Shown one piece after another: positions 9,437 through 9,810 of a stretch of DNA of 57,395 bases; the first letter of the stretch is position 1; every line of letters begins with the position of its first letter. The translations under genes were made by a program, and so were the position numbers. Source of the DNA: an uncultured Collinsella sp. (GTDB taxonomy: Bacteria; Actinomycetota; Coriobacteriia; Coriobacteriales; Coriobacteriaceae); assembly GCA_902475445.1 (NCBI GenBank), contig CABRZN010000001.1:1-57395 (forward strand), read 5' to 3'. Under the pieces are notes generated by a model. The model worked only from the letters and a program-made list of their open reading frames with translations. It was not told the DNA's origin and ran no database searches.

Positions 9437-9465
9437 TAGAACATTCGTTCGTTTTTAGATACAAT
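9437..9465 (+). promoter_or_regulatory. Promoter overlapped by a LexA (SOS) box
   Basis: GAAC-ATTC-GTTC at 9439-9450 is a perfect Gram-positive SOS core. The -10 TACAAT lies at 9460-9465, with a 17-nt spacer to TAGAAC. Confidence 0.7.
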
Positions 9466-9516
9466 GGGTCCAGAAGCAGATGGGCCAGCTCCCTCTTCCC
9501 AAGAAGGAGATGGACT

Positions 9517-9603
9517 ATGAGTATTAACGATGTCCTGACGTTGTTGTTGCTTGTAATCGCGGCTGTGGGGCTCGGCATCCACATTGGAGGTCGAATGAAA
9601 TAG
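9517..9603 (+). CDS. 28-aa hydrophobic peptide, candidate type I toxin
   Basis: MSINDVLTLLLLVIAAVGLGIHIGGRMK has one TM helix and a basic C-terminus. The SD AAGGAG pairs with upstream CTCCCTCTT. Confidence 0.75.
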   Translation: MSINDVLTLLLLVIAAVGLGIHIGGRMK

Positions 9604-9689
9604 CCGCCCCCGCGTAATGCGAAGACGGCCACTTCTCACGCTACAAACGTGTTTGGCAGCTGGCCAACCCGCTGCAACGGGTGCCATCT
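9596..9689 (-). ncRNA. Candidate antisense antitoxin sRNA (about 90 nt)
   Basis: Minus-strand promoter TTGAAA-17-TAAGAT at 9723-9695. Terminator-like hairpin GCCGTCTTCGC/GCGGGGGCGGC followed by TATTT. Ends are approximate. Confidence 0.65.
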
Positions 9690-9810
9690 GCTTCATCTTA
9701 TGCGAATCACTGCCTCATTTCAACAAGCCCCTAGGGCTCAAATGGAATCGCGATAATACCTATAATGGCGATAGCTAAAACACGATTCGCTTCCCCATCG
9801 GAGGATGTCT

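Follow-up and report, generated by a model that had tools for sequence, protein, structure and literature searches.

A candidate type I toxin-antitoxin family in Coriobacteriales with a predicted LexA operator at the Collinsella toxin promoter

Introduction

IstR-1, the small RNA (sRNA) of the tisB/istR-1 system of Escherichia coli, is encoded divergently and pairs in the 5′ untranslated region (UTR). Its partner is a membrane-acting toxin of ~29 amino acids (aa) whose mRNA is LexA-controlled, with the sRNA transcribed from a constitutive promoter (PMC11951105). Here we describe a locus at positions 9437-9723 of a 57,395-nucleotide (nt) stretch of an uncultured Collinsella genome (contig CABRZN010000001.1; "the window" means this whole stretch), where an open reading frame (ORF) for a 28-aa hydrophobic peptide faces a putative convergent antisense RNA gene. 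The initial interpretation, made from the letters of the DNA and here called the sequence-only reading, had named it a TisB analogue. The analogy stands for the logic, a LexA-gated membrane peptide, in that the damage-induced scheme of tisB/istR-1 matches the one inferred for the Collinsella module. It does not extend to homology: neither the peptide nor the RNA layout is homologous to tisB/istR-1, and no sequence relation appears in either database comparison (no Pfam match of the peptide, no Rfam match of the locus). Furthermore, the predicted Collinsella sRNA is convergent and positioned over the 3′ UTR, a leader ORF like tisA is absent, and the module comes from a different phylum with a different LexA motif (GAAC-N4-GTTC in Collinsella). 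We consider it likely, judging from sequence, that the locus is a chromosomal type I toxin-antitoxin module and belongs to a previously undescribed family of Coriobacteriales.

In bsrG/SR4 and txpA/RatA of Bacillus subtilis, a small hydrophobic toxin is accompanied by an antisense RNA that runs convergently over the 3′ part of the mRNA. These two systems lie on prophage-like elements, and we know of no LexA control of either. SR4 promotes decay and tightens the helix over the Shine-Dalgarno (SD) sequence (PMC3834814). The layout of the Collinsella module is alike in placing the predicted antisense RNA convergently over the 3′ end of the toxin mRNA, but there is no peptide or RNA family match. 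Unlike the Bacillus systems, the module sits between housekeeping genes, and it has no match in plasmids and phages (blastn) or in viral contigs (peptide scan). In contrast to what is described for SR4, blocking the 3′ UTR in modelled folds of the Collinsella RNAs does not tighten the pairing over the SD.

In aapA/IsoA of Helicobacter pylori and hok/Sok of plasmid R1, the full-length mRNA is closed by a 5′-3′ interaction and carries a CU-rich anti-SD, features conserved by covariation; a far 3′ element masks the SD, 3′ trimming activates the mRNA, and in the trimmed form the 5′ region is what the antisense RNA pairs with (PMC6733600). The Collinsella module shares the long-distance 5′-3′ closure. 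It differs in that its SD is predicted to be masked locally and its antisense RNA to lie over the 3′ UTR, and there is no sequence homology. In the proteobacterial dinQ/agrB system of Escherichia coli, the dinQ mRNA adopts mutually exclusive structures and the agrB antitoxin is trans-acting and encoded upstream. DinQ is described as a LexA-regulated small inner-membrane toxin, as given by a title in the reference list of PMC8594479. The predicted LexA control is thus alike, but dinQ/agrB is not homologous to the Collinsella module.

A paper of 2025 states type I systems only in Proteobacteria, Firmicutes and Tenericutes, together with its own cyanobacterial candidate, and attributes this narrow range to search bias (PMC12390103). 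The sequence-only reading was aware of no earlier description of such a module, and we likewise found none in print: main texts, abstracts and listings yielded no type I toxin-antitoxin system in Collinsella, Coriobacteriia or Actinomycetota nor, among the papers listed, in Eggerthella (supplements and database locus lists lay outside this search), and no Collinsella LexA or SOS work on the topic. The word "Actinobacteria" has zero occurrences in the main texts of the T1TAdb paper and of Fozo et al. 2010. The family described here looks like the first toxin-antitoxin system of the RNA-controlled type in the actinobacterial phylum.

Results

Conservation of the module

A full ortholog of the module is found at the same place (locus 1) in 10 of 36 other genomes of the genus, with 88-95% identity, while 8 of the 36 have the same place without the promoter and the ORF. 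A second, paralogous locus (locus 2, ~75% identity) lies behind an aldehyde dehydrogenase gene in many genomes of the genus. The tBLASTn search for homologues that had been proposed as a check confirmed 55 loci (one genome per species), all of them in Collinsella or Coriobacteriaceae and some in C. aerofaciens. With a peptide profile, 34 of the 57 other Collinsella genomes sampled proved to have intact ORFs (36 matches at E up to 0.1, minus two inside long frames), as did, in a second family of the order (f6), 10 of 201 genomes, which come from three genera and have up to 4 copies per genome. The same profile gave no credible match over ~370 genomes of the phylum outside Coriobacteriales, the one hit being inside a 343-aa frame.

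Together these loci make up a family of at least 17 sequence types, present in Collinsella and in the second family of Coriobacteriales. The 17 types that were read have a common layout, in which the hydrophobic ORF is followed by a hairpin, a helix-2 strand, a side hairpin and a clamp strand (described below). The module is conserved as a whole and its flanks are variable. Other types lie between aldehyde dehydrogenase and metallophosphoesterase, homoserine O-succinyltransferase and GHMP kinase, M24 peptidase and EF-P, FtsX and RelB, or ComEC and holA. Since the flanking genes differ between types, the module is autonomous.

RNA structure and covariation

The two long-range complementarities pointed out in the sequence-only reading are exact, and pair 9473-9483 with 9684-9694 (the clamp) and 9483-9490 with 9658-9665 (helix 2). 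The side hairpin is present as well, at 9667-9682. The proposed pairing of the SD with an element just upstream also appears in the minimum-energy fold, where AAGAAGGAG, seven bases 5′ of the ATG, is paired with CTCCCTCTT through CUCC/UCUU. RNA 9471-9700, with the 11-bp clamp included, folds at -97.1 kcal/mol (z = -5.17), and none of 200 shuffles is as stable.

The sequence of the clamp differs in nearly every type, and each 5′ end complements its own 3′ end. This can be seen without reference to any annotated feature when the region from ATG-65 to ATG-15 is paired with the region from stop+55 to stop+125 across the 17 types. Cognate duplexes have a mean of -54.1 kcal/mol as compared to -39.4 (standard deviation 9.0) for non-cognate pairs, a few of the latter scores being inflated by the close relationship of some types. 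In 10 of 17 rows the cognate partner has the best score, and in 16 it is among the best three; in 20,000 permutations the observed mean was never attained.

When 16 types (omitting L136, in which the stop codon is lost) are aligned by MAFFT without supervision, RNAalifold predicts both long-range helices, the clamp and helix 2, together with the hairpins of the terminator and of the side arm. On this alignment, 90.5% of the cells are paired as compared to 82.1% in shuffles, and 15 of 28 pairs have changed on both sides as compared to 8.4 ± 1.7, neither value being reached in 500 shuffles. The covariation score is 0.337 and falls to 0.07-0.09 when the 3′ partners are slid by 1-3 columns; the structure was derived from the same sequences, which makes the slid control generous, and the shuffle and cross-pairing tests are free of that weakness. 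Conservation of the structure in homologues, which had been set as a check, is thus borne out by compensatory changes in both long-range helices (16-17 types). On this comparative evidence the RNA structure is under selection.

Folds of the 16 types give the SD a mean unpaired probability of 0.12 and thus predict it to be mostly paired. A masked ribosome-binding site in a structured mRNA, as seen in the type I class, is therefore found here in silico, and the 5′-3′ long-distance interaction that marks Hok/Sok and AapA/IsoA is found as well. No processing site could be defined on the sense strand. Two candidate elements were rejected: a translational switch through sRNA-like blocking of the 3′ UTR, which brought no consistent change in access to the SD, and the hairpin at 9730-9742 as a sense terminator, which has no compensatory changes among the locus-1 sequences.

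We further note two structural peculiarities. One copy (L135, G219:C5) is flanked by two more complementary blocks of 10 nt, situated ~50-70 nt 5′ of the ATG and 20-45 nt beyond the clamp, whose order, read by eye, cannot nest with the clamp; these blocks are unexplained. A 24-nt near-copy of the mRNA 5′ end (window 9468-9491; 92% identity, E 0.04) is present elsewhere in the source genome (L002, G000:C12:17675-17699). It recurs at a similar score in many Collinsella genomes and may be a chance resemblance inside a conserved gene.

The peptide ORF

An ORF for a 28-aa transmembrane peptide, the starting point of the sequence-only reading, is present and translates to MSINDVLTLLLLVIAAVGLGIHIGGRMK, in line with the small (<60 aa) hydrophobic toxin ORFs of the type I class. 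When the 17 types are compared in pairs, the differences per site amount to 0.43, 0.22 and 0.64 at the first, second and third codon positions, a coding-type pattern with third positions about three times more variable than second positions. The amino-acid replacements preserve hydrophobicity: all 17 peptides are strongly hydrophobic, with best 17-aa hydropathy windows of 2.05-2.61, and they follow the pattern M-x3-(D/Q)-(V/A/L)-...-L-(V/I/L)-(I/L)-A-A-...-basic tail. The ORF stays within 25-32 aa across types, every intact type retains a start, a stop and an SD at 6-11 nt, and the stop codon is embedded in AAATAGCCGCC in each type. These comparisons indicate that the ORF is a real gene under coding selection.

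Database searches returned no named relative. A Pfam scan of three family peptides (from both paralogous Collinsella loci and a third type, E up to 1) gave only DUF4305, at 16.3 bits against a cut-off of 27; an NCBIfam scan at E up to 10 gave zero matches, and a PHROGs scan no family. Neighbours of the 32-aa paralogue in the ESM Atlas are small-protein clusters without names, except for a weak lead at rank 30, a cluster with Hol_Tox (PF16935) on 15% of its members (score 0.84). At the RNA level, an Rfam cmscan of 9000-10000 at E up to 10 gave four matches, all far below the gathering scores.

At three positions, 9657, 9660 and 9569, the window copy has a base not shared by any of the 30 other unique locus-1 sequences. 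Through the one at 9660, a G-U pair of helix 2 becomes G-C, and the change at 9569, where the contigs from RNA libraries carry A, places a glycine at residue 18. The stop codon has changed and the frame runs on in four other copies (L136 in G117, L152, L154 and L155), which are probably decaying.

Antisense promoter and terminator

The convergent promoter TTGAAA-17-TAAGAT of the sequence-only reading is found on the minus strand (9723..9695) and matches the consensus at 9 of 12 positions. A consensus scan returns 2 promoter-like sites in 1.1 kb, as compared to 0.9 ± 1.0 expected. All 31 unique locus-1 sequences share the -35. Their -10 reads TAAGAT in 30 cases and TAAAAT in the remaining one, and the spacer is variable. 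The other types have a -10-like element at the same place, on the opposite strand and directly after the clamp.

The G-U-rich terminator, said to be complete only on the antisense strand, is more stable on that strand in all 17 types. The hairpin averages -18.7 kcal/mol as antisense and -10.2 kcal/mol as sense RNA, with 2-5 and 0-1 G-U pairs, respectively. In the window, antisense 9686..9590 forms three stem-loops (-47.8 kcal/mol, z = -4.72) that finish with a 17-bp terminal hairpin, and the U-rich tail complements the stop and the final Lys/Arg codons. A hairpin with stability as antisense and a U-rich tail after it is the signature of a minus-strand RNA terminator. A simple terminator scan did not return it because the tail is too poor in T; in toxin-less loci, 6-8 consecutive T come after the hairpin on the antisense strand.

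The LexA box

The toxin promoter had been read as a perfect GAAC-N4-GTTC over the -35 with a TACAAT -10, and both elements are present. The box, GAACATTCGTTC, is the sole perfect site in the window. With 0.77 expected per window and at least one in 59 of 100 shuffles, it is not significant alone. At locus 1 it is perfect in all 43 distinct contexts at a constant 78 or 79 nt 5′ of the ATG, its arms being invariant and its N4 spacer occurring in six variants; at locus 2 it is perfect in 7 of 7 Collinsella contexts, 86 nt 5′ of the ATG. The 31 unique locus-1 sequences outline a footprint, in which the DNA before 9437 is variable, TAGAAC-N4-GTTCG is fixed apart from N4, the toxin -10 is kept, 9466-9472 is variable and the RNA 9473-9700 is nearly invariant. 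The box is absent together with the ORF from every toxin-less allele and travels with the toxin part, not with the neighbours. The predicted operator lies over the -35 of the toxin promoter, with no box at the antisense promoter, so that, as in TisB/IstR-1, only the toxin promoter would be under LexA control.

The same motif marks DNA-damage genes of the source genome (2.05 Mb, 202 contigs, 60% G+C). A perfect box lies 19 nt 5′ of the longest recA frame (Pfam RecA, 3.8e-135), two precede lexA (LexA_DNA_bind and Peptidase_S24), and single perfect boxes precede ruvC and rarA/mgsA. In five of five further genomes (2 Collinsella and 3 f6), the recA box lies between -35 and -10. The LexA part of the sequence-only reading is thus supported by a motif that precedes recA, lexA, ruvC and rarA and is invariant at two paralogous Collinsella loci. 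A perfect box is found in none of the 15 other sequence types, and the f6 genomes have the same box at recA although their module types are box-less. From these sequences, the predicted SOS control is a Collinsella-specific addition to a wider, mostly box-less family.

Similar boxes had also been claimed before the Y-family polymerase of the window. Two are indeed present directly before the IMS-family ORF (which ends at 27928), GAACAGGTATTC at 26381-26392 and GAACATGTGTTT at 26398-26409, but each has one mismatch, and one-mismatch boxes are not enriched in the window (15 found versus 20.6 expected).

Further boxes were observed away from the module. At locus L042 (G000:C8:23166-23194), two perfect boxes, 5 nt apart, lie 67-84 nt upstream of hicA-hicB, a type II toxin-antitoxin pair by Pfam (HicA_toxin 1e-09, HicB 1.1e-21). 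By its boxes, this pair would be a second SOS-linked toxin system in the source genome. Perfect boxes in AT-rich intergenic DNA (C58:1038, C63:3863, C104:6012, C61:10052 and C121:2705) precede gyrB/parE-like, GyrI-like and helix-turn-helix genes, a 125-aa ORF without a Pfam family, and one long ORF that reaches the contig end and has its box 180 nt upstream. The genes behind these five boxes are possible extra members of the SOS regulon, as far as their sequence context indicates.

At locus 2 (L027-L033), ~70-100 nt before the ATG, the LexA box forms the loop of a 10-bp palindromic stem. The stem covaries between genomes, just 3′ of the aldehyde dehydrogenase stop, and only the GAAC/GTTC arms are fixed. 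The palindrome probably doubles as the terminator of the upstream gene, and a single stretch of DNA may here be terminator and operator both.

Toxin-less alleles

At 14 verified loci the antisense promoter, body and hairpin are kept and the toxin promoter and ORF are absent. Nine of these are at locus 1 (L019-L026 and L172) and five at locus 2 (L034, L167 and L169-L171); a further candidate, L168, was unreadable and was dropped from the count. No toxin ORF without the antisense part was seen among the loci examined. Such an asymmetry, with antisense-only and no toxin-only loci, is expected of a harmful gene and its protective RNA.

One assembly, G026, holds both alleles of locus 1 with the same flank, toxin-bearing L013 on contig C139 and toxin-less L172 on C69. 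This double allele is probably strain heterogeneity within a metagenome-assembled genome.

Table 1. Predicted features of the module in the window
Feature	Position	Strand	Remarks
LexA (Cheo-type) operator GAACATTCGTTC	9439-9450	no strand	predicted; overlaps the -35 position of the toxin promoter (TAGAAC, 9437-9442)
Toxin-promoter -10, TACAAT	9460-9465	+	predicted start ~9472-9473
Clamp, 5′ strand GAAGCAGATGG	9473-9483	+	exact complement of 9684-9694; double changes in 6/10 pairs
Helix 2, 5′ strand GGCCAGCT extended by CC	9483-9492	+	3′ end (9489-9492) overlaps the anti-SD; double changes in 4/6 pairs
SD-masking local hairpin	9489-9509	+	anti-SD CTCCCTCTT (9489-9497) with SD AAGAAGGAG (9501-9509)
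Toxin candidate ORF	9517-9603	+	28 aa, ATG to TAG; single hydrophobic helix, basic C-terminus (RMK)
Predicted antisense sRNA, ~90-97 nt	9592-9688	-	folds with three stem-loops; complementary throughout to the toxin mRNA 3′ UTR; ends placed from promoter and terminator
Antisense terminator hairpin, G-U-rich	9597-9635	-	U-rich tail opposite the last toxin codons and stop
Helix 2, 3′ strand AGCTGGCC	9658-9665	+	AGTTGGCC preceded by GG in most relatives
Side hairpin ACCCGCTGCAACGGGT	9667-9682	+	double changes in 3/4 pairs
Clamp, 3′ strand CCATCTGCTTC	9684-9694	+	pairs with 9473-9483
Antisense promoter	9695-9723	-	-35 TTGAAA 9718-9723, 17-nt spacer, -10 TAAGAT 9695-9700

Discussion

A putative SOS-gated membrane toxin

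Conservation, covariation, the coding pattern, the strand-specific terminator and the LexA motif all support what the sequence-only reading had proposed, a module that resembles type I toxin-antitoxin systems and whose toxin promoter carries a LexA operator. Toxicity, the antisense transcript and LexA binding are inferred from sequence. A LexA-repressed promoter would give rise to a toxin mRNA of ~225 nt (from ~9472 to ~9697) that encodes the 28-aa single-helix membrane peptide. The ends of this mRNA would be closed by the 11-bp clamp, with the second long-range helix beside it and the ribosome-binding site in a local hairpin, and the full-length form would be stable and poorly translated. A convergent, unregulated promoter would produce an sRNA of ~90 nt, whose perfect complementarity to the 3′ UTR takes in part of the clamp's 3′ strand and which would end at the G-U-rich hairpin with its U-tail opposite the last toxin codons. 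In undamaged cells, LexA would hold toxin transcription low, and the sRNA would pair with residual toxin mRNA and lead to its degradation, most likely by RNase III, whose gene is present in the source genome. DNA damage would remove LexA, the toxin mRNA would exceed the sRNA, and the peptide would insert in the membrane and slow or stop growth.

Evidence for and against

Several observations weigh against a type I module of this kind. Genome-wide there are 22 perfect GAAC-N4-GTTC sites, as compared to 26 expected from composition; perfect boxes are not enriched, and the case for LexA rests on position and conservation. The window copy is the only one with a glycine at residue 18 (GGG versus GAG) among 65 locus-1 copies, the other 64 having glutamate; Gly is also found at this residue in two distant types, and the window copy is for this reason not called dead. 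The folds reveal no clear translational switch, the SD being unpaired at 0.12 and, with the 3′ UTR blocked, at 0.16. No convincing terminator of the sense RNA follows the clamp, which leaves the 3′ end undefined. Some genomes (G004, G022 and G027) seem to have the sRNA gene only, well conserved, and the sRNA may have a role of its own. Finally, in f6 types the inverted repeat extends past the clamp into the -10 of both promoters, and some of the f6 "clamp" complementarity could be a DNA-level repeat, not RNA pairing. On the supporting side, where the arms of the clamp differ, it is mostly the sense RNA that obtains G-U pairs (15 wobble-compatible versus 4 incompatible differences, counted by eye), which argues that the clamp belongs to the plus-strand RNA.

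The RNA evidence points in both directions, and it consists of assembled contigs only, which give no strand, ends or level. In two studies of one organism, transcriptome contigs of 193 nt (9498-9688) and 203 nt (9498-9698) cover just the module and end at these positions. They have 7 differences, and each run has another contig that corresponds to the locus-2 paralogue. The metatranscriptome runs X3 and X4 cover 9485-9643 only and the flanking genes within 9300-9900 have zero contig cover, and nothing firm can be taken from either. The transcriptome contigs hint at a discrete RNA of at least 200 nt, too long for the sRNA alone. The long form is, however, present in runs not known to involve DNA damage, a further point against the model.

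The latter finding suggests that some expression is tolerated, and it fits a non-toxic, SOS-induced small membrane protein, which might modulate another membrane protein or envelope physiology after damage and have its level fine-tuned by antisense RNA and folding. Coding selection, the hydrophobic helix, the LexA box and the antisense features would suit such a protein equally well. This explanation is unlikely in our view, since it has to be set against the patchy, multi-copy spread in Collinsella (34/57 genomes) and the second family (10/201 genomes, up to 4 copies), the insertion of copies between unrelated housekeeping genes, the loss of the stop codon in some copies, and the 14 antisense-only loci as compared to zero toxin-only loci. 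A heavy, covarying silencing structure also suits a harmful, selfish-type product more than a housekeeping helper. Two non-coding RNAs, one structured and the other antisense to it, with the 28-codon ORF untranslated, would account for the very strong conservation of structure and for an sRNA gene that outlives the ORF, and translation is a prediction from sequence; we regard this explanation as very improbable in view of the start, stop and SD spacing kept in intact types, the constant ORF length, the roughly threefold excess of third-position over second-position changes and the replacements that keep hydrophobicity.

The neighbourhood of the window copy invites another explanation. Two genes on the minus strand are divergent from the module, one for an ArsR-type regulator (9071-9385) and the other for an SdpI/DUF1648 membrane protein (8374-9087); TAGACA-17-TATAGT at 9412..9384 is a promoter-like site for them. 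This ArsR/SdpR-SdpI pair (8374-9385) could provide immunity to a secreted SdpC-like killing factor or bacteriocin encoded by the ORF. We rejected this idea on the flanks, as an SdpI-like gene is found in 0 of 10 flanking ORFs scanned of other family members, and it ranks as more remote still than the non-coding pair: toxin-less alleles retain the SdpR-side flank, a signal peptide and a processing gene are both lacking, and a length of 28 aa accommodates one helix only. Because the flanks differ from type to type, the ArsR/SdpI pair beside the window copy is best seen as coincidence. Chance features or an assembly artefact would be compatible with a lone perfect box that is not significant in the window, yet recurrence in dozens of independent genomes, covariation and the fixed box position contradict this explanation and make it the least credible. 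We thus retain a type I toxin-antitoxin module as the likely identity of the locus.

A possible cassette class

The inverted repeat of the f6 types reaches both -10 elements, so both RNAs would start with almost the same sequence. These nearly identical starts are a new architectural point. They lead to a tentative joint reading, to which we give a rather low probability, in which the module is the founding member of a class of type I cassettes that spans Coriobacteriales and has the form of an inverted repeat of promoter plus clamp. The toxin mRNA and the sRNA would begin nearly alike, with the sRNA partly mimicking the mRNA's own 5′ end; the sRNA would displace this 5′ end from the 3′ clamp strand and form a duplex that dooms the mRNA. 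Collinsella would later have rewired the toxin arm to LexA at two loci and so acquired an SOS-triggered growth brake, in a genus that is dominant in the human gut, and stand-alone sRNA genes left after toxin loss would persist as trans-acting regulators.

Implications

A well-supported family in Actinomycetota would widen the known range of type I systems. The module unites three features that so far occur in separate families, the 5′-3′ clamp, a predicted 3′-UTR antisense RNA and predicted LexA control. Its alleles, toxin-bearing, toxin-less and decayed, LexA-gated and ungated, are a ready natural comparison series. Collinsella, which includes C. aerofaciens, is a common genus of the human gut, and the module could bear on its tolerance of DNA-damaging drugs.

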